Shown: positions 3,783 through 32,000, counted from the first letter of the stretch. The stretch: DNA of 32,000 bases from Tannockella kyphosi (GCF_021054785.1 NZ_CP088239.1:690001-722000); one strand, 5' to 3'. Notes: a model not told the origin generated them from the sequence alone. Made by a program: numbers and translations.

Positions 3783-4317
3783 AATTTCGTGTGATATTTG
3801 CATGGATTTAATGCCACTTGTTAAAGATGAAGTTGCAAGTGATGACAGCAAAAAAGTAGTATATGAACATATGAAGTTTTGCGAAGACTGTAAAAACGTA
3901 TACGGTGTAGAAGTGGTTTTTGAAGATAGTGACAAGAAAATCTTAAAAGATATCAAGAAAAATTTAACACATATATGTCTTATAATAATAGGACTAGGTA
4001 TGCTTTTTGGAATTAGTTTATCAGCAAACCAATTTATGTTTTACAACATCTTGATTATGCCAGCAATTGGTGGAATTAGTTATTTTTCACTTAAAAAGAA
4101 ATCGATTTATGTGTGTACGGCAGTATTTATTACAGTATATTTAAGATGGTTATATGATAGTTTTGGTTATGCCTTAAATGGAAACCTTGTGCAAGCGTTC
4201 ATACCGCCATTATGGTGGGCATTAATATACACTGGATTAACTTTGTTCGGTATTTTAGTAGCAATGTTACTGCATTTTGGATTTAAGAAGGAGAAAAAAG
4301 ATGAAAAAGATAACTGA
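3775..4317 (+). CDS. putative anti-sigma factor (zf-HC2-like N-terminus, about 4 TM helices)
   Basis: The start overlaps the sigma gene stop. N-terminal Cys pairs are CDIC...CEDC, followed by hydrophobic helices. This is the classic position downstream of an ECF sigma gene. Confidence 0.6.
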   Translation: MNKISCDICMDLMPLVKDEVASDDSKKVVYEHMKFCEDCKNVYGVEVVFEDSDKKILKDIKKNLTHICLIIIGLGMLFGISLSANQFMFYNILIMPAIGGISYFSLKKKSIYVCTAVFITVYLRWLYDSFGYALNGNLVQAFIPPLWWALIYTGLTLFGILVAMLLHFGFKKEKKDEKDN

Positions 4318-5107
4318 AATTATTGCAATTGTTGTTGCAGTTTTACTAATATTAGGACTATTATTTGTGGCAAATGGTTTTGTTGGAAATCCAGTTTCGA
4401 AATATTTAGTCGACAGAAATTCTGTAAGATATATAGAAGCACAGTATTCAGACTTAGACCTTGTAAAAGAAATCGGATTTGATTTTAAAAGCACCAGATA
4501 TTATGTAAAACTAAAAAGCGAAACAATAGAAGATTTACATTTTACACTGTACTATGGTATGAACGGCAAACTTGGTAGAGATTTATATGAAAACAACATT
4601 ACAAATGGCTGGAATGTTTTACACCGATTAAATGAAGATTATAGAGATGAAACAGATCTTATCTTTGAGCAACTTGAAACTAATCCACTATTCAAAGAAA
4701 CTGACAGTTTTTATACATCAGCTTATTTAATGAGCAGCATCGAAATTGAGGATAGATTAGTGGGTTTTGAAGATGTATCGGGTGGAATTGATGGTACTAC
4801 ACTTGAACTTGATAAAGATTATGATATAGCACAGATGGGAGCGATAGGTGGCTTAATTGACATAGACCTTAGATTTACTGACGGTGACGAAAGTTTTGAA
4901 AAAGGTGCAGAGGTTATAAGAGAGTTGAAACGTATTTTTGATGAAGCTGGTATAGGCTTTTATTATATAAGTTTTGGAATGATTAATGCCGAAGGCAATC
5001 TTGCATATAGAGTAGATTACTTGCCATATTCACAAATTGATGATGAAAATTTAGCTGATATACTTAAAACAATGGACGAAACAAACCCAATAGATTATGA
5101 TAAATAA
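4301..5107 (+). CDS. membrane-anchored protein of unknown function (N-terminal TM, acidic ~240 aa extracytoplasmic domain)
   Basis: ATG at 4301 after AAGGAG (the track start at 4277 has no RBS). MKKITEIIAIVVAVLLILGLLFVANG is a signal-anchor. The gene overlaps the anti-sigma gene by 17 nt, suggesting translational coupling. Confidence 0.6.
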   Translation: MKKITEIIAIVVAVLLILGLLFVANGFVGNPVSKYLVDRNSVRYIEAQYSDLDLVKEIGFDFKSTRYYVKLKSETIEDLHFTLYYGMNGKLGRDLYENNITNGWNVLHRLNEDYRDETDLIFEQLETNPLFKETDSFYTSAYLMSSIEIEDRLVGFEDVSGGIDGTTLELDKDYDIAQMGAIGGLIDIDLRFTDGDESFEKGAEVIRELKRIFDEAGIGFYYISFGMINAEGNLAYRVDYLPYSQIDDENLADILKTMDETNPIDYDK

Positions 5108-5165
5108 AATGAGCATTTTGTTCAAGGGTAAGTAACAACAAATGATATAGGAGGTGAGCTACTAG

Positions 5166-5330
5166 GTGCAAGATAAGAAGTGGCTTTTATGTCCTATGTG
5201 CCAAAACAAAACAAGGATACAACTTCGAGAAGATACGGAACTCAAAAACTTCCCACTATTCTGTCCGAAGTGTAAGCAAGAAACTTTAATTGATGTACTA
5301 AAGTACAAGATTATCGCAAAAATTAAATAG
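5166..5330 (+). CDS. cysteine-rich KTR zinc-ribbon protein (54 aa, not in ORF track)
   Basis: GTG at 5166 lies 9 nt after GGAGGTG. The product is VQDKKWLLCPMCQNKTRIQLREDTELKNFPLFCPKCKQETLIDVLKYKIIAKIK, carrying CPxC..KTR...CPKC. Confidence 0.6.
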   Translation: MQDKKWLLCPMCQNKTRIQLREDTELKNFPLFCPKCKQETLIDVLKYKIIAKIK

Positions 5331-5337
5331 GCATTAA

Positions 5338-5370
5338 AAGACGGATCATATACATGGTTCGTCTTTTTTT
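5338..5370 (+). terminator. rho-independent terminator
   Basis: Stem 5338-5347 (AAGACGGATC) pairs with 5356-5365 (GGTTCGTCTT, with wobbles), followed by T7. A homologous hairpin lies at 16772-16800 in element B. Confidence 0.55.
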
Positions 5371-5394
5371 ATGCCCAAATGAAAGGAGAAAGTT

Positions 5395-6348
5395 ATGCTG
5401 AAGAACTACAAAAGTTTTGATTTATTAGAAGAATATTTAAGCTATCTCACTGTTATTAAAGGTCGCTCAATCAATACGGTTATAGAGTATCGCACAGATG
5501 TGTTGATGTTCTTTGAGTTTCTTTGTAACAAGCGAAATATTGTGCGAGAAAAGTATGATTTAAGCATGATAGATAGTGCATTTATAGGGAGTGTTACTCT
5601 CAATGATATGTATGCGTTTATCTCTCATTGCCAAACAGAAAACAAGGCGAGTGCAGGCACTAGGGCAAGAAAAATTGTATCTATCCGTCAGTTTTGGAAG
5701 TATCTAAAAAACAAGGCTCGTGTCATTGATAATAATGTCGCAGAGGACTTAGAAACACCTAAAATTCCTAAACGTATACCAAAATATTTAACTCTTGAAG
5801 AAAGTGTAAGGTTGCTCATTGCCAGTGAATTTTCTGCAAGAAATCATTGTATCATCACGATATTTCTTAATTGTGCATTAAGGCTATCAGAACTAACAAG
5901 CCTTGATGTTGGGCAAGTATCATCAGACACTTTGCAAGTTATCGGCAAGGGAAATAAAGAACGCAAGATATTTCTAACCAGTGCTACCAAAAAGGCTCTT
6001 GAAAATTGGTTAAAAGAGCGAGAACAAATACCTACTTCCACTACTGCACTATTTATCACTAAGCAAGGAAATAGAATGACAGGGCGAAGTGTTCAAGATG
6101 TTGTTAAAAGGTGCATTAAACTTGCAAATTTAGAACACAAAAATATATCCGTACACAAATTAAGACACACAGCAGCCACCTTGATGTATCAGTATGGCAA
6201 GGTAGATATTCGCTCACTACAACAGATTTTAGGACACGAAAGTATCGCCACTACTGAAATCTATACGCATATTGACGAGAGCCAATTAAGAACTGCTGTA
6301 AACTCTAATCCTCTATCAGGAATGTATGGCAATGTGATGAAAGGATAA
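5395..6348 (+). CDS. XerC/XerD-like tyrosine recombinase
   Basis: SAM-like N-domain (YLTVIKGRSINTVIEYRTDV). Catalytic signature is ALRLSEL ... HKLRHTAAT ... LGHESIATTEIYTH. Confidence 0.85.
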   Translation: MLKNYKSFDLLEEYLSYLTVIKGRSINTVIEYRTDVLMFFEFLCNKRNIVREKYDLSMIDSAFIGSVTLNDMYAFISHCQTENKASAGTRARKIVSIRQFWKYLKNKARVIDNNVAEDLETPKIPKRIPKYLTLEESVRLLIASEFSARNHCIITIFLNCALRLSELTSLDVGQVSSDTLQVIGKGNKERKIFLTSATKKALENWLKEREQIPTSTTALFITKQGNRMTGRSVQDVVKRCIKLANLEHKNISVHKLRHTAATLMYQYGKVDIRSLQQILGHESIATTEIYTHIDESQLRTAVNSNPLSGMYGNVMKG

Positions 6349-6353
6349 TACCA

Positions 6354-7109
6354 ATGGCAGACAATAGAAAATATTACTACCTCAAGCTAAAAGAAAGTTA
6401 TTTTGATGATGATAGTATTATCTTGCTTGAGAGTATGCAAGATGGAATACTCTATTCATATATCCTCTTGAAACTGTATTTAAAGTCGCTTAAACACGAT
6501 GGCAAGCTACAACTAGATGAACATATCCCCTACAATGCTCAAATGATAGCAACGATTACAAGACAACAAGTAGGCACTATCGAACGAGCATTGCAGATAT
6601 ATGAGAAATTAGGACTTGTGGAAATTCTTGAAGATAGCACAGTTTACATGAGTAACATCGAGCTTTTTATTGGAAAATCTTCCACAGAGGGAGAACGAAA
6701 AAGACGTGCTAGAAACGGAAATATTAAGCAAAAACAGTTAGGTGGACAAATGTCCACCCCTATCTTGGACATTTGTCCACCAGAGATAGAGAGAGAGAAA
6801 GAGATAGAGATAGAGATAGAGAGAGAGTTAGAAAAGGGACATCACACACAGTTTTATGGAAAATATCAAAATATTTCATTAACAGATGAAGAACTGGAGC
6901 AATTAAAACAAGAACTACCCTCACTCTTTGAAAGCTATATTGAAAAATTAAGCGAATATATGGCAAGCACTGGTAAGACCTACAATAGCCATGTAGCCAC
7001 TATACGCAGATGGGCAAAGGAAGATGTATCTAAGAATACAAAAGGCTCACAGCGAGCTAATAAGGGCGAAGTACGCAATTATGACTACAAGGGTAATAAC
7101 AGCCTGTAA
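6354..7109 (+). CDS. phage replisome-organizer / DnaD-like replication initiator
   Basis: MADNRKYYYLKLKESYFDDDSIILLE...YSYILLKLYLKS matches the replisome organizer N-domain as I remember it. The C-terminal ..HVATIRRWAKED resembles DnaD-like tails. A paralog lies at 16830-17576. Confidence 0.75.
   Translation: MADNRKYYYLKLKESYFDDDSIILLESMQDGILYSYILLKLYLKSLKHDGKLQLDEHIPYNAQMIATITRQQVGTIERALQIYEKLGLVEILEDSTVYMSNIELFIGKSSTEGERKRRARNGNIKQKQLGGQMSTPILDICPPEIEREKEIEIEIERELEKGHHTQFYGKYQNISLTDEELEQLKQELPSLFESYIEKLSEYMASTGKTYNSHVATIRRWAKEDVSKNTKGSQRANKGEVRNYDYKGNNSL
6741..6836. repeat. palindromic repeats plus GAGA/GATA-rich tract inside the initiator gene (candidate ori)
   Basis: GGTGGACAAATGTCCACC (6741-6758) is a perfect palindrome. 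After an 8 nt gap comes GGACATTTGTCCACC (6767-6781), then about 55 nt of (GAGA/GATA)n encoding EIEREKEIEIEIERELEK. Confidence 0.4.
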
Positions 7110-7127
7110 ACGAAAGGAATATTGAAC

Positions 7128-7967
7128 ATGAAAAACTATATTAATAACATAGCAGACAGCATTGAACAGCGAAATTCAGAGCCTAGCGACTATCTAAACG
7201 AAACAGACAACCTCATGTATTGTGGTAAATGTAACACTCCAAAGCAAAAAAGATTGGATAAGCCATTTTTTGACGGAAGAAACATTGTACCCATTCCTTG
7301 TGCGTGTCGCTCTAAGGAAATTGAAGAAGAACGCAGACAAGAAGAACTTAGAAAGCATTTTCAACTGGTGGAAAGACTTAGAGAACAAGGTATCCGAGAT
7401 AAGAAGATGTTGCAGTGGATTTTCAACAATGACACAAGTGATGGCAAGCAGATTGATATTGCAAAGCGATATGTAGAAAACTTTGATAAGATAAAAGCTG
7501 AAAATGCAGGATTACTACTATGGGGAAATGTTGGTACTGGCAAAAGTTTTGTCGCAGGGTGCATTGCCAATGCACTGATCGACAAAGAGGTTTCGGTGCT
7601 TATGACAAACTTTGGTATTATTTTAGCTGATATGATGAATTTACAAATTGATAAAAACGAGTATATTGCAAATCTCAATCGTAAGAGCCTACTCATAATT
7701 GATGATTTTGGAATGGAAAGAGATACTGCATTTGCCCTAGAACAGATTTACAACGTCATAGACAGCCGATACACAGCTTCTAAGCCTTTAATCGTGACAA
7801 CTAACCTAACACTATCAGAAATCGAAAATACAGCCATTCAGACCGATTATAGACGCATATATGACCGAGTGCTAGAGATGTGTGTGCCTATCTTCTTTGA
7901 GGGCGAGAGCAAACGCAAGGACAGAGCAAAGGAAAAATTGAATAAACTGAAAGAAATCTTAGGCTAA
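7128..7967 (+). CDS. DnaC/IstB-like AAA+ ATPase with N-terminal Cys4 zinc ribbon
   Basis: CGKC..(22)..CAC Cys cluster, Walker A GNVGTGKS, Walker B LLIIDDFGMER. The ATG at 7128 aligns with the start of paralog 17596. Confidence 0.8.
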   Translation: MKNYINNIADSIEQRNSEPSDYLNETDNLMYCGKCNTPKQKRLDKPFFDGRNIVPIPCACRSKEIEEERRQEELRKHFQLVERLREQGIRDKKMLQWIFNNDTSDGKQIDIAKRYVENFDKIKAENAGLLLWGNVGTGKSFVAGCIANALIDKEVSVLMTNFGIILADMMNLQIDKNEYIANLNRKSLLIIDDFGMERDTAFALEQIYNVIDSRYTASKPLIVTTNLTLSEIENTAIQTDYRRIYDRVLEMCVPIFFEGESKRKDRAKEKLNKLKEILG

Positions 7968-8217: not shown

Positions 8218-8238
8218 TTCGGTCTTGACAAAACGCAC

Positions 8239-8673
8239 CCTAAAGGGAGTATCGTGATTGAGTGTGGGAAACTCTTACAACGCAAAGGATACAAAATTAA
8301 AATACTGAATACGATTAACTTCAAAAAATCAATGCACTATAACCCTTTTGCCTATATCCGAAGTGAAAAAGATATTTTAAAGTTGGTAACTACTTTAATG
8401 AAAAATACGCAAGGAGAACAAAAAGGTGGTGATGAATTTTGGACAAAAGCTGAAACACTACTGTACACAGCTTTAATCGGTTATATTTGGTACGAAGCTC
8501 CAAAAGAAGAACAAAACTTCAATACCTTGATTGAATTTATCAACGCAAGTGAAGTTCGTGAAGATGATGAAGATTTTAAAAATCCAGTAGATTTGATGTT
8601 TGATAAGCTCGAAGAAAAATCATCACAACACTTTGCTGTAAGGCAATACAAAAAATATAAACTTGCAGCAGGG
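8239..8673 (+). pseudogene. VirD4/TraG-like coupling protein (T4CP), internal fragment between elements A and B
   Basis: The frame is open from 8218 with no plausible N-terminus. It starts inside the (T)DPKG motif and ends ..FAVRQYKKYKLAAG at the element B junction. No Walker A is present, so the N-terminal part must lie upstream of element A. Confidence 0.75.
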
Positions 8674-13808: not shown

Positions 13809-14897
13809 TTAGGCAGTAAGTGGAGGAGCTAATCCCATACGGATTATTCCATCATATCCACAGCTTTTGCAAACAGTAGGTTTTCTACCAAGGAGTTTGA
13901 TTAATAATTCCTCTGTAGAGAGCCTTTTGCTTTCTGTAAATGTATTTGTCATCGCTTTACAAAGTGGCAGTTTTAATTGTTTTCCACGACTAGAGAGAAA
14001 TCCAAAATGTCGTATCTTCATGAATCCTTGTGGCAGGATATGCATTAAGAATCTACGGATAAATTCAATCGCAGTAAGTGTCATTTCCTTCCACCTGTTA
14101 CAATCAGAATAATCTCGCCATTTAAACGTAACATTTCCTCCTTTAAGTTTTAGGATTCTGTTATTTGAGATAGCAATTCGATGTGTGTACCTACCGAGAT
14201 ATTCCACTACACATGCTGCTGTTTTAAAAGGTGGCTTACAGTAAACAATCCATTCTTTGTTATAACAAATATTCAATATATCCTTTGAAATATCGGGCTT
14301 CAATTCTTTTAGTAATGCAAGATATTTACCACGAAACTTACGTGATAGAACTTTTACAGGTAAGAAAAACTTTTTCTTGGAGTTAATCCAAAAGCCTTGT
14401 TTGGATAGACCACCAGCTGGAATAATACAGTGTAAATGCGGATGGAAAGAAAGATTTTGTCCCCATGTATGAAGCACTCCAGTAAAACCAATATCAGCAC
14501 CAAGATATTCACTATCTCTAGTGAGTTCTCTTAATGTTTCTTTTACACATCGAAATAATAGGTTGTAGCAATCACGTTGATTAGCATATATAGTAGTATT
14601 TAATTCAGCAGGAACTGTAAATACCACATGAAAATATCCAACATTTAGTAAATCCATTTTTCTAGCATCAATCCATTTTTCCTTGGATAACGTTTGACAT
14701 TTGGGACAATGTCTGTTGCGACAAGAATTATAGGATTGACTGACTTCGCCACAACTAGGACACACATCCATATGTCCACCAAGTTTTGCAGTACGACAAT
14801 CAGAAATAGCATGAATTGCTTTATACTGAACATTGGATGGATGATGGGAGATTAAATAGTCTTGCATATGAGCAAGAAAGATATCTTGTATTTCCAT
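13809..14897 (-). CDS. IS91-family HUH Y2 transposase
   Basis: N-terminal zinc-binding domain (CRTAKLGGHMDVCPSCG...CRNRHCPKCQ), HUH-like HTWGQNLSFHPHLHCIIPAGG, and the C-terminal Tyr region YLGRYTHRIAISN. Confidence 0.85.
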   Translation of the reverse strand: MEIQDIFLAHMQDYLISHHPSNVQYKAIHAISDCRTAKLGGHMDVCPSCGEVSQSYNSCRNRHCPKCQTLSKEKWIDARKMDLLNVGYFHVVFTVPAELNTTIYANQRDCYNLLFRCVKETLRELTRDSEYLGADIGFTGVLHTWGQNLSFHPHLHCIIPAGGLSKQGFWINSKKKFFLPVKVLSRKFRGKYLALLKELKPDISKDILNICYNKEWIVYCKPPFKTAACVVEYLGRYTHRIAISNNRILKLKGGNVTFKWRDYSDCNRWKEMTLTAIEFIRRFLMHILPQGFMKIRHFGFLSSRGKQLKLPLCKAMTNTFTESKRLSTEELLIKLLGRKPTVCKSCGYDGIIRMGLAPPLTA

Positions 14898-15793
14898 TAT
14901 TTATTACCTTTGGACTTTCTTTTGGTTTCTTTCTCCATAAGTTTGTCTAAAGGGCTTTTAGTTTTCATAACATCGGTCATTGAAATTCTCAGATATCGCA
15001 TGGTAGTCCAAAGAGTGGCATGACCAAGGATTTTCTGTATGTAGAATACATTAACACCGTCTTCCATAAGATGGGTAGCATAGCTATGACGAAGTGTATG
15101 TACCGTTCCATAAGTAGGAATTCTACCTCTTATATGGTATCGTTTAAAAGCATCTTGAATAGCACGTTCAGAAATAGGTGCATCACCACAGCCATTAATA
15201 CCATTTAAGAATAAATATCCATCTGGATGTTTCGGTTTATATTCAAGATAGTAGGTACATAAATCATCGTAGGCAAATTTAGAAAGAGGAACCCAACGAT
15301 CTCGCTGCCCTTTACCTTGATAAACGAATAATCGCATCTGCTGTTTATCAATATCTTTAATACGGAGATGACGAACTTCAGATAATCTTAAACCACATCC
15401 ATAAGTTAGAGAAAAAATAGCTTTGTAGCGTGTACTGTCATCGATTGCTTCTAAAAACCATAAAACTTCTTGTCGTGTAAACGCAACAGGCACTTTAATA
15501 GGATCTTTCTTGCGAGGTAATCTTCGATAACAAAGTGTTTGTTCTAGTGTTACTTCAAAGAAAAATCGTAAAGCACTATTGTATACATTCATAGTCGAGG
15601 GTTGAATATTCGCTTCCTTGTCTAAATATTCAAGATAAATACGAAAATCATTTTCACAAAGTTCTTCAATAGGTTTATTGAAGTGTTGTAGGAATTTTCG
15701 TGCTTTTGTTTGATATTCTAACATGGTATGAGGGCTCATTCCTCTTAATTGAATATCAGTTTCCAGTTTCTTCAATGCTTCTTCATGTGTCAT
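14897..15793 (-). CDS. tyrosine recombinase associated with the IS91-family transposase
   Basis: The start MTHEEALKKL follows AAGGAG. The track extension to 15988 has no RBS. Catalytic signature is GLRLSEV ... HTLRHSYATHL ... LGHATLWTTMRYL. Confidence 0.8.
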   Translation of the reverse strand: MTHEEALKKLETDIQLRGMSPHTMLEYQTKARKFLQHFNKPIEELCENDFRIYLEYLDKEANIQPSTMNVYNSALRFFFEVTLEQTLCYRRLPRKKDPIKVPVAFTRQEVLWFLEAIDDSTRYKAIFSLTYGCGLRLSEVRHLRIKDIDKQQMRLFVYQGKGQRDRWVPLSKFAYDDLCTYYLEYKPKHPDGYLFLNGINGCGDAPISERAIQDAFKRYHIRGRIPTYGTVHTLRHSYATHLMEDGVNVFYIQKILGHATLWTTMRYLRISMTDVMKTKSPLDKLMEKETKRKSKGNK

Positions 15794-15970
15794 AATAAAA
15801 ATCTCCTTTAAATTTGTATTTGTAGTTTTGCTACATTTACATTTTAAAGGAGAACGTGTAGAATGAGAAGAAAAGAGCCACCGCGTAGGCGGTTTAGTTC
15901 TATGAGCATAATATTTATGCATCGTAAAAAAGAAGTACGAATAAAATTTATATACTGGAAAGAGGTTATC

Positions 15971-16159
15971 ATGAAAAATAACGAACATAAATATTTGAGC
16001 TATGGGATAAGTTTCGGTATGTTAGCTGGAGCAACTTTAGGATTAACTATCGGTATCTTTGGATTAGCTATTGGTGCAGGCATAGGTATGTTGTTAGGCA
16101 TTGTCATTGGAACTACTATTGACCATAGTAAGAATAAAAAAGATAATGACGATAAATAA
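15971..16159 (+). CDS. small glycine-zipper membrane protein (62 aa)
   Basis: ATG at 15971 after AAGAGG. GMLAGATLGLTIGIFGLAIGAGIGMLLGIVIGTTI contains repeated GxxxG, followed by a charged tail. Confidence 0.5.
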   Translation: MKNNEHKYLSYGISFGMLAGATLGLTIGIFGLAIGAGIGMLLGIVIGTTIDHSKNKKDNDDK

Positions 16160-18720: not shown

Positions 18721-19539
18721 GGTAAAACAGCAAAGTCAATTCTTATTTCATGTGGTGCAAGACTTGCTCCATTTGATATAAAAGAATTACGAGATGTTAC
18801 AGAATATGATGAATTGGAATTAGATAAATTAGGTGATGAAAAAACAGCACTCTTTATCATCATTAGTGATACCGATGCTACGTTCAACTTTCTTGTATCC
18901 ATGTGCTATACCCAACTGTTCAATCTACTTTGTGATAAAGCTGATGATGTATATGGTGGTAGGCTTCCAATTCATGTGCGTTGCTTGATTGATGAATGTG
19001 CCAATATTGGACAGATACCAAACTTAGAAAAGTTAATGGCAACGATCCGTTCTCGTGAGATTTCAGCTTGTCTTGTATTGCAGGCACAGTCACAATTAAA
19101 AGCCTTGTATAAGGATAATAGTGACACAATAATCGGCAACTGCGATAGCATGGTTTTCTTGGGTGGTAAGGAAAAAACAACACTCAAAGATTTAACGGAA
19201 ACAATGGGAAAAGAAACCATTGATAGTTACAACACTTCTGATACAAGAGGTACACAACGAAGTTATGGATTGAATTATCAGAAGCTTGGTAAAGAGCTAA
19301 TGAGTATGGATGAACTAGCTGTTATGGATGGTGGAAAATGCGTTCTTCAGCTTAGAGGTGTTCGACCATTCTTTAGCAACAAATACGATATTACCAAGCA
19401 CCCTAATTACAAGTATTTATCTGATTTTGATAAGAGAAATACCTTTGACATAGAGAAGTTTTTATCAACAAAACTAAAGCTCAAAGCAAATGATGTTTTT
19501 GAAAGTTACGATTTGCAAAACTTAGAAACACAGCAATAA
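18721..19539 (+). pseudogene. VirD4/TraG-like coupling protein, C-terminal fragment
   Basis: The frame is open from 18709 (same frame class as 8239-8673). It reads GKTAKSILISCGARLAPFDI..., with Walker B-like IHVRCLIDECANIG and a conserved tail SMVFLGGKEKTTLKDL. There is no start codon or RBS of its own. Confidence 0.8.
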
Positions 19540-27286: not shown

Positions 27287-28151
27287 CGTAATGGAACCAA
27301 AAATCCTTGAACATGGGGATTTTGGTGAAATTAGAACAACAGTTGATATTGGTGGTAATCCTATGTTTTGTGGATCTGATGTTGCCACAGCTTTAGGATA
27401 CAAAGAACCACGCAAGGCTATTGCTAGACATACAAAGGGTGGGACGAAATATCCCACCCTTACGAATGGAGGTGTGCAAGATTTAGTATTTATCTATGAA
27501 CCGGATTTATATAGGTTGTTGGTTAAAAGTAAACTTCCATTAGCACAAGAATTTGAACGATGGGTATTTGAAGATGTTTTACCTTCTCTACGCAAATATG
27601 GTATATATGCAACTGATGAAGTTCTTGCAAACGATGAGAAATTCAATGAGTTAAAGAAACAACTAAAAGAAGAAAGAAAAGCAATGCGACTTCAAAAATC
27701 TAAATGCTCTGAACTTAAAAAAAATAATAAAGAGTTAATTTCTTGCATTGAAGAATTACAGATTGCTAATCTACACCAAGCAGTAGACATTGAAGCTCTT
27801 GAAGAAATTATGGAAGAAGCTCAAGATATGGTTGACTATGCAGAAATCATCTTAGGTAGCGACCTTGATATGACAGCTACTCAAATTGCAGCAGATTATG
27901 GCATTTCAGCTATTAGATTAAACAATTTATTGCATGAAGCAGGACTACATCGAAAAGTAAACGGTCAATGGGTGCTATATCGTAAATACATGAATTGTGG
28001 ATATGCAAATTCCTACACTGGTTTTGTAGAACAATTTGAGCATTATCATGTGCAAACTAGATGGACACAAAAAGGAAGATTGCTCATTCATCAAATTTTA
28101 AAACACGCAGGTATTAAACCTATTTGCGAATTGGAGGAACAATATGAATAA
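27276..28151 (+). CDS. antirepressor-like protein (Bro-N plus KilA-C domains)
   Basis: FGEIRTTVDIGGNPMFCGSDVATALGYKEPRKAIARH is Bro-N-like. The C-terminal TATQIAADYGISAIRLNNLLHEAGLHRKVNGQWVLY is KilAC-like. Confidence 0.75.
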   Translation: MKDNVMEPKILEHGDFGEIRTTVDIGGNPMFCGSDVATALGYKEPRKAIARHTKGGTKYPTLTNGGVQDLVFIYEPDLYRLLVKSKLPLAQEFERWVFEDVLPSLRKYGIYATDEVLANDEKFNELKKQLKEERKAMRLQKSKCSELKKNNKELISCIEELQIANLHQAVDIEALEEIMEEAQDMVDYAEIILGSDLDMTATQIAADYGISAIRLNNLLHEAGLHRKVNGQWVLYRKYMNCGYANSYTGFVEQFEHYHVQTRWTQKGRLLIHQILKHAGIKPICELEEQYE

Positions 28152-29559
28152 ATTAGTATTAGCCGAGAAACCCTCAGTAGGTCTTGCGATTGCAAAGGTC
28201 TTAGGAGCAACTACTAGACAAGATGGGTATTATGAGGGCAATGGTTATTATATTTCATGGTGTGTGGGACATCTTGTAGAACTTGCCACAGCAGAACATT
28301 ATGGAGAACAATATGCCAAGTGGAAATATGACGATTTGCCTATTCTTCCTACCGACTGGCAATATAACGTTTCAAAAGGAAAAGAAAAGCAAATGAAGAT
28401 TATCGCTAACCTCATGAACAAAACAGATGTGGCCACAATTATTTGTGCCACAGATGCAGGACGTGAGGGTGAGTTAATCTTCCGACTTGTATATGATAAA
28501 ATCGATTGTATCAAGCCTGTAAAAAGACTTTGGATTTCTTCTCTTGAAGATGAAGCAATTAGTAATGGTTTTTCTAATCTACATGATGGAGAACAATTTG
28601 AAAATCTGTATCAAGCTGCATTGTGCAGAGCAAAAGCCGACTGGCTAGTAGGCATCAATGCAACAAGATTATTTTCCGTTTTGTATGGGCAAACCTTGAA
28701 TATTGGTCGTGTAATGTCACCTACTCTTGCAATGATTGTGGAACGAAATTCACAAGTAACAGCCTTTAAATCAGAGCCACTCTATACTGTAATGTTAGAT
28801 TGTGGTGGTTTTACTCTTGCTAGTGACAAACTGAAAGATAAATCACAAGCTGAAGCTATGGCAAATGCTTGTCATAATCAAGATGTTCTTATTGAAACAG
28901 TAGAACGAAAAGAAAAGGCAGAAAAGCCACCGAAACTTTATGATTTAACCACTTTGCAACGTGAAGCCAATAAATTACTTGGTTTTACAGCAGAACAAAC
29001 TTTACAATATACACAAAGCCTATATGAGCAAAAATTAGTGACTTATCCTCGTACTGATAGTAGATACTTAACAACTGATATGAAAAACTCCGTTCCTGCT
29101 GTGGTAAATGCCAGTGCAGGAATTTTTATGTCTGATATTTCTAGTCTAGCTATCAATGTGGAGCAAGTGACAGATAACAACAAGGTATCGGATCACCATG
29201 CGATCATTCCAACTATCAAGGTAAACGGCTTTGATTTGCAGTCACTTCCACTTGGAGAACGTGAAATCTTACGATTGGTTGCAATGCGTCTTTTGACAGC
29301 CACGAATGAAAATCATATCTATGCTGAAACTGTGGTAACTGGAAAGTGTCACGATTACAGTTTTGCTACCAAAGGTAAAACAATTCTCTTTGATGGATTT
29401 AAGGCAGTTCAAAAGCTCTACAAAGAAACCGAAGAAAAAGCAGATATTCCACTACCCGAACTTGCAAAGGGTGATAGTTTTATGGCTAATTCTTCAATCA
29501 AAGAGGGCAAAACTTCACCACCTAAGAACTTTACCGACGATGTATTATGTAAAAGGTAG
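28144..29559 (+). pseudogene. topB: DNA topoisomerase III (type IA), 3'-truncated by insertion of element C
   Basis: N-terminal Toprim (MNKLVLAEKPSVG.., CATDAGREGE) and the active-site region TYPRTDSRYL. The ORF ends ..KTSPPKNFTDD plus 5 foreign codons (VLCKR). The usual continuation and the C-terminal ~200 aa are absent. Confidence 0.75.
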
Positions 29560-29592
29560 CTAAGAAACTATTAGAGAGAGAAAGGTGATTTT

Positions 29593-31434
29593 ATGAGCAA
29601 AAAGACTAAGAAAAATGCTGTTACTGCCCTGTATTCAAGGCTTTCTCGTGATGATGAAATTATAGGGGATAGTAACAGTATTGTCAATCAAAAGAAGATG
29701 TTGGAGAAGTATGCAGAGGATAATGGGTATACAAATATTCAACATTTTTCGGACGATGGAATTTCGGGTGGTACATTTGATAGACCCTCTTGGAAACAAA
29801 TGATTGAAGGTGTGGAAAGTGGAATAGTCACAACCATAATTACACGAGATTTGAGCAGAATAGGTAGAGATTATTTACAAGTTGGATTTTACACCGAAGT
29901 GATGTTTAGAGAAAAAGGAGTTAGATTTATCGCTATTGCAAACAATGTAGACAATAGCAAAAGAGAAAGTGCAGAGTTTGCTCCATTCCTAAATATTATG
30001 AATGAGTGGTATATTCGTGATACAAGTAGAAAAGTTACTTCTGTTCTTAGAGCAAGAGGTTCAGACGGAAAACATCATACCACCAATCACGCAATCTACG
30101 GTTATAAAAAATGCAAAGACAATCCAAGCCAATGGCTAATTGATGAACCTGCTGCAAGTGTAGTGAAACGAATGTTTCAAATGTGTATTGATGGGAAAGG
30201 TCCTTATCAAATTGCAAAGGTACTTACAGAGGAAAAAGTTGAAAGACCATCATACTATTTAGCACAAAGAGGAATGGGAAATCATATTTCAAATTACAAA
30301 GCCGAAGAACCTTACTTATGGAGAGGGACAACAGTTGCACATATGTTAAGCAAACCCGAATATATGGGGCATACTGTGAATTTTCGCACCTACAAAGATA
30401 GCTATAAAGATAAGCAACCGAAGAAAACAGATAAAGAAGATTGGATAATTTTCAAAGACACGCAAGAGCCTATTGTTGATGAAGCAACTTGGGAAACAGT
30501 ACAAAAACTAAAGAAAACTAAGCGTAGAAGTGATACCATTGGAGAAGCCAATCCATTAACAGGACTTATGTATTGTGCTGACTGTGGAGCGAAAATGTAT
30601 AATCATAGAGGTAGTGCTGGGTATGAACGAAATTGGTGTGGCGAAAAAACAGATAAAAAGCGACCTAATCGAGATGAATACAACTGTTCCACATATGACT
30701 TAGCAAGGCAAGATTACAGATTTGTACCTTGTACTCAGCATTATATTCGTACAGAAGCTATTAAAAATATTTTACTTGAAACTATACAAGAAGTTAGCAG
30801 ATGTGTGCAGTTAGATGAAGATAAATTTATAAATGAAATCATCAATAAGACATCATCACAACAAGAAAAATCTGTTAATTCATTGAAGCAACAAATCACA
30901 AAGGATAATCGACGAGTAATAGACTTAAACAAACTAATACGACAGCTTTATGAGGACAATGTTATTGGAAAGTTAAGTGATAAGCGTTTCAATTTGATGA
31001 TTGAAGATTATGAAGAAGAACAAAAGCAACTAGAGCAATCCATTGAGCAATCAGAAACTATGCTGAAACAACTTGATGAGGAAAGTTTTAATACTACAAA
31101 ATTCATAGAACTTATTAAGAAGTACACAGATCTTAGTGAACTTACAACACCAATGATAAATGAATTTGTTGATAAAATTTTAGTGCATGAGGGCAAATGG
31201 GAAAATTATCAGAGAACGCAAGAAATAGAAATCTATTTGAATTTCGTTGGTAAAATTGAAATCACAAAAAAGGAAATTGAACTAACAGAAACTGAAATTT
31301 TGGAACAACAAGAGTTACAGAAGAAGCGAGATAAAAAACGAGAATATAATTATCGTTATATGAGGAAACGCAGAGAAAGATTAAAAGAGGAACAAACAAA
31401 AATAAAGGCTGATGAAGAAAGTAAAGGAGCGTAA
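29593..31434 (+). CDS. large serine recombinase (element C)
   Basis: ALYSRLSRDDEIIGDSNSIVNQ, CADCGAKMY zinc ribbon, coiled coil, and the tail FVDKILVHE...IEIYLNFVGKIEI. Confidence 0.9.
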   Translation: MSKKTKKNAVTALYSRLSRDDEIIGDSNSIVNQKKMLEKYAEDNGYTNIQHFSDDGISGGTFDRPSWKQMIEGVESGIVTTIITRDLSRIGRDYLQVGFYTEVMFREKGVRFIAIANNVDNSKRESAEFAPFLNIMNEWYIRDTSRKVTSVLRARGSDGKHHTTNHAIYGYKKCKDNPSQWLIDEPAASVVKRMFQMCIDGKGPYQIAKVLTEEKVERPSYYLAQRGMGNHISNYKAEEPYLWRGTTVAHMLSKPEYMGHTVNFRTYKDSYKDKQPKKTDKEDWIIFKDTQEPIVDEATWETVQKLKKTKRRSDTIGEANPLTGLMYCADCGAKMYNHRGSAGYERNWCGEKTDKKRPNRDEYNCSTYDLARQDYRFVPCTQHYIRTEAIKNILLETIQEVSRCVQLDEDKFINEIINKTSSQQEKSVNSLKQQITKDNRRVIDLNKLIRQLYEDNVIGKLSDKRFNLMIEDYEEEQKQLEQSIEQSETMLKQLDEESFNTTKFIELIKKYTDLSELTTPMINEFVDKILVHEGKWENYQRTQEIEIYLNFVGKIEITKKEIELTETEILEQQELQKKRDKKREYNYRYMRKRRERLKEEQTKIKADEESKGA

Positions 31435-31436
31435 TT

Positions 31437-31823
31437 ATGGAACAAAGTATATTTGAAAAAATGGGTGGTACTTACATCAAAGTTGGCGATTACTATGTAC
31501 CAAATTTAGGACAGTTTGATGACAAAGAAGAAACAGATGATAGACCTTTAGGCAAGTATGGAATGATACGAGAAACATTCCTAAAAGAACATAGAAAGCC
31601 TTTATACAATCATCTGTTACTTAGTGGAGAACTACATTCCCACTTGCGTGATGTAAATGAGCAATCACAATATTTACTAGACACACTACTGCCCCAGTAC
31701 AAAGCAAATCAAGGTGTCACAGAGGAATTAAAAGCCAGTAAACAACTTCTATGGGTAGGAATGGTAAACAACATCCTAGCACAGATTGAAGAAATCATAT
31801 ACAGCGAAATTGTGTATGTATAA
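31437..31823 (+). CDS. tnpV: TnpV-family transposon protein
   Basis: 128 aa, a close paralog of 675-1064. Confidence 0.8.
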   Translation: MEQSIFEKMGGTYIKVGDYYVPNLGQFDDKEETDDRPLGKYGMIRETFLKEHRKPLYNHLLLSGELHSHLRDVNEQSQYLLDTLLPQYKANQGVTEELKASKQLLWVGMVNNILAQIEEIIYSEIVYV

Positions 31824-31833
31824 TTTAGGATTT

Positions 31834-31868
31834 AAGACGGAGCAAGTAATATTGTTTCCGTCTTTTTT
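31834..31868 (+). terminator. rho-independent terminator after tnpV
   Basis: AAGACGGA (31834-31841) pairs with TCCGTCTT (31857-31864), followed by a T-run. Confidence 0.6.
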
Positions 31869-31911
31869 CATATAAAAAATCAAATTAAAAACAGAAAAGG
31901 AGCATTTCATT

Positions 31912-32000
31912 ATGACAAAGAAAACAATCGTAGAGCAACTCAAAGAAACACAAATCGAGATTGAAAAAACAAGAACAGAAAAGAAACAAAAGGAACATCA
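31912..32000 (+). CDS. DUF3847-type protein, N-terminal part (runs off the window)
   Basis: MTKKTIVEQLKETQIEIEKTRTEKKQKEH parallels MAKKSVIEQIKDTQEEINILQVQKKQQEH. The RBS is AAAGGAG. Confidence 0.6.
   Translation, partial: MTKKTIVEQLKETQIEIEKTRTEKKQKEH

Follow-up and report, generated by a model that had tools for sequence, protein, structure and literature searches.

Probable site-specific insertion of a Tn6104-like mobilizable element into the topB gene of an integrative and conjugative element in Tannockella kyphosi

Integrative mobilizable elements (IMEs) nested in conjugation genes that belong to integrative and conjugative elements (ICEs) represent a known kind. Tn6103, a CTn5-like ICE of C. 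difficile R20291, holds Tn6104, Tn6105 and Tn6106 in its conjugation module, with TnpX-related recombinases, TnpV and mobA/mobL (PMC3158075). Two of these insertions lie in the TraG/type IV coupling protein (T4CP) gene, ORF 1743, and for Tn6104 a 2-bp repeat and demonstrated excision are described (PMC3158075). Here we analyze 32,000 nucleotides of Tannockella kyphosi (GCF_021054785.1, NZ_CP088239.1:690001-722000; hereafter the window), in which two elements, A and B, interrupt the T4CP gene of an ICE, like two of the insertions in Tn6103, and a third, C, interrupts its topoisomerase III gene, topB. Very probably, C is a Tn6104-like IME that was inserted site-specifically into topB by its own large serine recombinase. 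The third target in Tn6103 is a different one, ORF 1776 for a putative single-strand-binding conjugal protein, and the topoisomerase gene there, ORF 1793, is intact (PMC3158075). What is new to us is TopB as a target, how prevalent such insertions are and that they extend to IncC plasmids. A literature search found no text naming topB as an IME target, although the supplementary catalogues of PMC12084326 may list it; partial topoisomerase genes flanking ermB in C. difficile RT023 belong to an unrelated context and were set aside.

Further relatives share parts of this arrangement. Streptococcal IMEs with serine recombinases occupy fixed internal sites of conserved ICE genes, among them IME_Sco1050_traG_site1/site2, IMESp2907 in a maff2-related gene and a tet(O) fragment in a SNF2 gene (Guedon et al. 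2017, PMC5704250, Table 1); the C type likewise uses one internal site of TopB, in at least 66 loci. Replisome-organizer and DnaC genes occur in Tn6104 (PMC5704250, Table 1) and in both A and B, whereas a close complete relative of C (locus L113, see below) lacks them and has in their place type I methylase and specificity genes. The 'matryoshka' MOBQ2 IMEs of Faecalibacterium (PF03389, PF12958, often PF14198) lie within Tn1549-type ICEs with topB in the backbone (PMC12084326). Their module is found in L113 in the order TnpV (PF14198), PF12958, MobA_MobL; in the window, TnpV is present along with the opening 29 codons of the PF12958-type gene.

The first-pass annotation had likened C to Tn4451, and for part of the anatomy this holds. 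The recombinase gene stands at the left end and tnpV and tnpW are present in Tn4451 as in C-type elements, the window itself displaying the tnpX-like gene at the left end and tnpV; the GA listed for Tn4451 (PMC5704250, Table 1) is also the crossover dinucleotide of the C type. The likeness ends with the relaxase, which is MobA/MobL (PF03389, MOBQ) in C-type elements and MOBV (TnpZ), placed in MOBV1, in Tn4451 (PMC12084326, section 8). It also ends with target choice: Tn4451 uses 'Numerous sites (GA)' with low specificity (PMC5704250), whereas about 84% of C-type insertions fall at a single TopB codon. On these two counts C is not a strict member of the Tn4451 family, and the description of Tn6104 and the MOBQ2 IMEs fits it. 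The title of Lyras & Rood 2000, cited in PMC13023037, has the Tn4451 circle form a promoter for tnpX; the -35 box at the right end of Tn4451 could pair with a left-end -10 box in the circle, a pairing that in the C type is only predicted.

The interrupted topB gene and its crossover site

The open reading frame (ORF) at 28144-29559 (+) encodes 471 residues that match the Pfam families Toprim and Topoisom_bac, the latter over profile positions 2-330 of 411 only, and that align with residues 2-496 of the 653 of E. coli Topo III. The protein reads ...KEGKTSPPKNFTDD and, after ...PPKNFTDD, closes with VLCKR and the stop TAG 29557-29559; the five unrelated codons that had been noticed at the end of an otherwise normal TopB-like ORF are thus borne out. 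A complete type IA topoisomerase III comprises Toprim, a whole Topoisom_bac domain and a C-terminal zinc-ribbon repeat, an architecture that the window ORF does not reach. Intact alleles and separate C-terminal ORFs contain the part that it lacks, which includes PF13342. An intact allele, L003, on a contig of a metagenome-assembled genome, is 95% identical to the window ORF and goes on ...FTDD/TLLSAMENANN... for 221 further residues, which is the TLLSAME-like continuation that the first-pass annotation had anticipated. Homologues do not end near residue 466: eleven other genome copies measure 685-704 residues where complete, and the 90%-identity cluster of the window ORF includes two proteins of 687 residues. 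The window ORF is a fragment of TopB, cut at residue ~466 of ~687, and not a naturally short gene.

The remainder of the gene is most likely in the same chromosome, since WP_249030204.1, a 216-residue ORF with the annotation 'DNA topoisomerase [Tannockella kyphosi]', comes from a contig of 2,260,890 bp, a length equal to that of the contig recorded for the window's recombinase, TopB fragment and Bro/ANT protein. The sequence of this ORF starts MENANNAEVD... and matches the C-terminal part of L003 at 95% identity.

The exact point of exchange emerges from comparison with related loci. Constant element sequence starts at GA beside variable flanks in all of them, and at the right end the constant part stops at GA. 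The same dinucleotide bounds both ends of 8 + 3 complete relatives, the window copy showing attL only. Joining at this GA in silico, and nowhere else, restores an open TopB frame in 8/8 complete loci, reading ..PPKHFTEDTLLSAME.. The core is, on this comparative evidence, the GA that opens the Glu or Asp codon after F-T, at 29536-29537 in the window. The first-pass annotation had proposed a GA at 29538-29539; the dinucleotide stands, but the window reads CG there, with GA at 29536-29537 and 29539-29540, and the comparative data place the exchange at the former. A crossover after GAT (29541), where homology to L003 breaks, was also considered and rejected: the window matches L003 through GAT because the element arm begins with CGAT and so mimics the target. 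In 'FTDD', the last base of the first 'D' codon and the entire second 'D' are mimicry encoded by the element.

The left end of C resembles that of B, as had been remarked before: CGATGTATTATGTAAAAGGTAGC... and GGATATAAACTGTAATAGTAATC... are equal at 16/27 positions, counted by hand with the crossover dinucleotides aligned and the cores in register. Left and right arms of the same element are imperfect mirror images, at 16/24 positions in the C type and at up to 25/30 in L028, and the left motif TGT(A/G)AA(A/G)GG is mirrored on the right by CC(C/T)TTGACA.

Right ends were available from eight metagenome loci, L111, L113 and three further contigs. All 13 have the small tnpW gene, then ...CC(C/T)TTGACA, exactly 10 nucleotides, GA and the TopB 3' part [E/D][D/A][T/S][L/I]L..M. 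These elements measure 7.6-10.3 kb. One close relative, L113 of Chakrabartyella piscis (CP092441.1), is a complete copy of ~8.0 kb with 93.8% nucleotide identity to window 29496-32000 and with both junctions visible. Its genes run recombinase, TnpV, DUF3847, MobA/MobL relaxase, HTH, N6_Mtase, Methylase_S, a 69-residue ORF and TnpW, and its right junction reads CCCTTGACAAAACGCAACC-GA-AGATACAATTTTATCGGCTATGGAG. The expectation that tnpW, TTGACA with some 10 nucleotides and the rest of TopB lie downstream of C is therefore realized in the relatives, and for C itself the right junction would follow from them.

These relatives also bear on whether the recombinase might be the ICE's own integrase, with the cut in TopB marking the end of the ICE, or whether the junction might be an assembly chimera. 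Some ICEs do use serine integrases (PMC12084326), and the window stops 2.4 kb past the junction. In the complete relatives, however, ICE genes resume after 7-10 kb, with the TopB 3' part, an ArdC/YodL-type gene, TTRAP and an SNF2-type helicase; the elements have their own relaxase and are devoid of secretion-system genes; and the junction is seen again in assemblies that are independent of one another and derive from different samples and species. We regard both possibilities as scarcely credible and have rejected them. For insertion of an IME, the comparison establishes the event, its target, the core dinucleotide and, against real empty sites, precise restoration in silico, all at the level of sequence. 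What looked like a pseudogene would be a precise insertion, undone by excision at the GA repeats.

Recurrence in gut bacteria and IncC plasmids

We collected 80 metagenome loci, mostly from human gut, by recombinase similarity alone (58-66% identical); because the recombinase was the only query, their association with TopB is an independent observation. A TopB N-terminal fragment stops at window residue 465/466 directly before the recombinase gene in 66 loci (tblastn), and about nine more, with flanks too short for tblastn, read ..PPKxFT. The flanks comprise 52 distinct 30-nucleotide sequences, and the TopB fragments are 30-65% identical to that of the window; by these two measures many independent host genes have been hit, and not one ancestral event inherited. 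Overall, recombinases 52-100% identical to that of C sit at the same TopB codon on at least 66 independent contigs. The site is very common in human-gut assemblies. Wherever enough upstream sequence was present, co-oriented type IV secretion genes preceded TopB in 38/42 loci, so the targeted topB is an ICE-borne gene. The element is co-oriented with TopB in all loci, and TnpV, DUF3847, MobA/MobL and TnpW form the common backbone.

Closer relatives show the same junction with diverging neighbors. Locus L001 holds an identical element beside a TopB allele that differs at three positions, the last at 29535; the recombinases of L113 and L114 are 97% identical to that of C, and that of L106 is 82% identical. 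An exact look-up found the C recombinase otherwise only on contigs of ~1.9 kb. A scan of viral contigs returned relatives of only 52-60% identity, four at the TopB site and two at unrelated sites that lack the left-end motif.

Some loci have decayed. In L016 (9998-11886) a relaxase fragment comes after a TopB gene that breaks off near residue 296. L110 (4231-10000) retains an orphan right end (tnpW-TTGACA-N10-GA-TopB 3' part), whose upstream side has been replaced by an IS3 insertion sequence, a tyrosine integrase and chromosomal genes.

Such loci raise the question of whether the insertion in T. kyphosi has itself become a dead end, C or its right end having decayed since, with TopB a permanent pseudogene and the ICE a non-transmissible remnant. 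The two decayed examples, the two further insertions in the T4CP gene of the same ICE, the IS91-like insertion in B and the position of the right end of C outside the window all speak for it. Against this, the recombinase gene has kept a full ORF that encodes all four domains; other samples and a further genus yield copies 100% and 97% identical, beside different TopB alleles; the N-terminal part of TopB has kept its frame open and shares 95% identity with the intact allele; and the separate C-terminal ORF is annotated in T. kyphosi on a contig of the size given for the window proteins. Decay of this kind is unlikely in our judgment.

The spread of targets has a bearing on how such recombinases are classified. 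Durrant et al. (bioRxiv 10.1101/2021.11.05.467528), who clustered target genes at 50% identity, labelled a DUF4368 clade that includes TndX-like recombinases 'multi-targeting'; its domain architecture, DUF4368 included, is that of the C recombinase. Since the motif used here lies in TopB genes only 30-65% identical to that of the window, a recombinase could be scored as multi-targeting while being motif-specific, which suggests that some members so labelled are in fact specific to a motif. Such specificity is relevant wherever DUF4368 recombinases serve as genome-engineering tools, and the comparison supplies an exact attB, attP and core for the whole recombinase clade.

The motif is conserved across phyla, and the same kind of insertion reaches beyond the Firmicutes. 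A 6,699-bp relative lies in topB of four Klebsiella and Citrobacter plasmids, NZ_CP085731.1 (27,824-34,664; our locus L115), NZ_CP070578.1, NZ_CP070545.1 and NZ_CP070596.1, at the motif PAPHFT/EATLLAAME. Its recombinase is 52% identical to that of the window, the highest value returned by the plasmid search, where the matches are annotated just 'recombinase family protein'; in its backbone it shares 96% identity with the gut element L111. Besides its DUF4368 recombinase and TnpW, it encodes a MobA/MobL relaxase and the resistance genes aph(2'')-IIa and aac(6')-Im. Some 970 other plasmid records match only the two flanks, contiguous in an intact topB; those examined are IncC, and the one interrupted plasmid of the four that was typed is IncC/IncFIB/IncFII. 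In silico excision at the GA repeats yields the empty plasmid site (L116, NZ_CP024564.1) at 82/82 nucleotides, completing a triple of attB, attL and attR and providing the most stringent check on the position of the crossover. The interrupted plasmids come from clinical isolates of Czech hospitals; both resistance genes, but not the element itself, are listed in an account of Czech KPC plasmids related to them (PMC8333104). The plasmids thereby mark a concrete route for resistance genes from Firmicutes to Enterobacterales.

Integration, excision and expression

These comparisons offer a coherent scheme for integration. The recombinase of C would join attP to a specific attB within the ICE topB. 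The predicted attP consists of two imperfect inverted arms around the GA core, ...CCCTTGACA-N10-GA-NNNN-TAT..TGTAAAAGG...., and the proposed attB is the DNA encoding the conserved stretch PPKxFT-[E/D]-[D/A]-T-L-L-S-A-M-E, with exchange at the GA that opens the E/D codon. Integration would be conservative and directional, so that the element would always be oriented like TopB, with the recombinase at the left end and tnpW and TTGACA at the right. TopB would be split into an N-terminal piece of 466 residues and a piece of ~221, and excision at both GAs would restore it exactly. The predicted restored site is TTTACC-GA-TGATAC and the predicted circular joint TTGACA-N10-GA-CGATGTATTATG.

Closing the circle would also place TTGACA of the right end before a -10-like box of the left end. 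Joints built in silico have TTGACA-17 nucleotides-TATGCT or TATATT in eight loci and TATTAT for the C type, and the excised circle is predicted to assemble in this way a TTGACA-17 nt-TATTAT promoter that would serve the recombinase gene, much as in Tn4451. For the integrated state, a search of the + strand before the recombinase gene found no promoter-like site, nor was a terminator-like site found between the TopB stop and that gene. The integrated recombinase would then be transcribed only by read-through from the transfer operon of the ICE, and the excised element would be mobilized by its own MobA/MobL relaxase via the ICE secretion system.

Four observations weigh against this account. 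The right end of C lies past the edge of the window, and the attR of this copy is deduced from the relatives and the 216-residue ORF. A real circular joint (attP) or a tandem junction was absent from all loci examined. TTGACA also mirrors the left-arm motif TGT(A/G)AA and so belongs to the terminal inverted repeat; it may for that reason be conserved for binding of the recombinase and not as a promoter. Specificity, finally, is incomplete, 14 of ~89 loci being at sites outside TopB. These 14 have the same left end and all have GA, and they retain 5.9 of 12 conserved TopB half-site positions against about 3 by chance; judged by this resemblance they are secondary, pseudo-attB sites. One such site (..SLSPKLVT-GA) is shared by two element sub-types, with left arms AGAT.. 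and TGTT.., in L068 and L089.

The same layout would suit a regulated split gene, in which activation of the ICE triggers read-through into the recombinase, the IME excises, and TopB, and with it the T4CP gene, is repaired before transfer. The recombinase gene is co-oriented with TopB here and in all loci, its ATG at 29593 follows the TopB stop after 33 nucleotides with neither a + strand promoter-like nor a terminator-like site between, and in silico excision leaves no scar. For Tn6103, Brouwer et al. raised the possibility that its transfer is blocked by the mobilizable transposons nested in it (PMC3158075). A non-palindromic core, however, is enough to impose co-orientation in the absence of any selection, and TopB may or may not be needed for transfer of this ICE family. 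We consider such regulation possible but doubtful.

Site-specific insertion, as set out above, admits a broader reading. One clade of IMEs with DUF4368 serine recombinases might have evolved to dock at the DNA of a near-universal type IA topoisomerase motif, PP(K/R)xFT(E/D)xTLL.AM, with its expression wired to the transfer operon of the host, a proposal that we advance tentatively and hold for less than even. Its two parts differ in standing. Docking at the TopB motif across phyla is demonstrated by the gut loci and plasmids compared, while the wiring of recombinase expression to host transfer is conjecture. If the proposal is true, any conjugative element with topB is both landing pad and vehicle, from Tn1549-like ICEs of Firmicutes to IncC plasmids of Enterobacterales. 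The recombinase would then be expressed from the transfer operon when integrated and from the joint promoter when circular, and the IME would leave and repair TopB as its host readies for transfer.

A separate feature of the recombinase gene is an antisense match to the perfect sigma-70 consensus (TTGACA-17 nt-TATAAT, 12/12) at window 29659-29687 (-), within its first 100 nucleotides and pointing out towards TopB. All 12 positions are kept only in relatives at least 97% identical, against 10/12 in the 82%-identical relative and ~8/12 in others; the match may be lineage-specific antisense control or a chance occurrence.

Genes of element C and its neighbors

Coordinates are collected in Table 1. 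The recombinase gene had been placed just past the truncated TopB, and this is confirmed: it starts about 55 nucleotides inside the left end of the element, and its product matches Resolvase, Recombinase, Zn_ribbon_recom and DUF4368, all four above the curated Pfam cut-offs. The N-terminal motif YSRLSRDDE is common to the recombinases of C and B. The gene that reaches the end of the window has a counterpart of 99 residues in L113, which matches PF12958 and lies before the MobA/MobL relaxase gene; the 29 codons inside the window give no Pfam match on their own.

Table 1. Positions of the junction, the genes of element C and the ends of elements A and B in the window
Feature	Position	Strand	Evidence
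5' part of ICE topB including crossover GA, left arm of attB	28144..29537	+	Pfam match, E. coli alignment, 95% identity to intact L003
GA crossover dinucleotide, core of attL, first two bases of Asp465 codon	29536..29537	+	Comparative loci, IncC triple
Left terminal inverted repeat, P' arm of attP (CGATGTATTATGTAAAAGGTAGCTAAGAAA)	29538..29567	+	Identical in L001, L002, L113; related arms across 80 metagenome loci
TATTAT, putative -10 half of joint promoter	29543..29548	+	TTGACA of right end 17 nt upstream only in excised circle; in silico
Half-site motif TGTAAAAGG in left arm	29548-29556	+	Sequence
Element-encoded stop closing truncated TopB ORF	29557..29559	+	Direct sequence reading
Ribosome-binding site GAAAGGTGA of C recombinase gene	29580-29588	+	Sequence
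Large serine recombinase of element C, 613 aa, DUF4368 TnpX/TndX-like type	29593..31434	+	Pfam; relatives 52-100% identical at same TopB site
tnpV homologue of element C	31437..31823	+	Pfam TnpV E = 3e-34; 84% identical to TnpV of element A
Start of DUF3847-type mobilization accessory gene, reaching window end	31912..32000	+	Colinear with L113 (93.8% nt identity)
Element A right end: tnpW, then TTGACA-N10; core would be TA at 8241-8242	8225-8240		Reading frame
Element B, 10,050 bp between GG cores; joining gives ..KLAAG-KTAKS..	8671-8672 and 18721-18722		Reading frame

The + strand of the window is a Gram-positive conjugation module with VirB6-like, PrgI-like, VirB4, CHAP hydrolase, DUF3991/Toprim and Bro/ANT genes, and the truncated topB is its last ORF. 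The first-pass annotation had seen the same logic of insertion in the T4CP gene; IMEs A and B are indeed present there, but the crossover of B is probably GG and not GA. With the junctions of A and B taken from the reading frame alone, the cores differ among the three elements, being GG in B, GA in C and perhaps TA in A. Their recombinases are 35-42% identical (42% for C and B) despite a common backbone, with TnpW and DUF3847 in A and B and closely similar TnpV in A and C, a pattern that fits one recombinase per target. One ICE can be occupied at three places by related IMEs, and each of their recombinases targets its own conserved run of codons within a DNA-processing gene.

Element B contains a third level of nesting, an opposite-strand gene pair at 13809-15988 (-) made up of an IS91-like ORF of transposase size and a tyrosine recombinase gene. 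The ICE that holds L113 has a further interrupted gene: at 3814-7495 a VirB4 N-terminal fragment of 505 residues is followed by the gene for a 611-residue DUF4368 recombinase and a DUF6809 gene, as in element B of the window, which suggests that virB4 is another IME target. Further on in the same ICE, an IS3 element removes the start of TopB.

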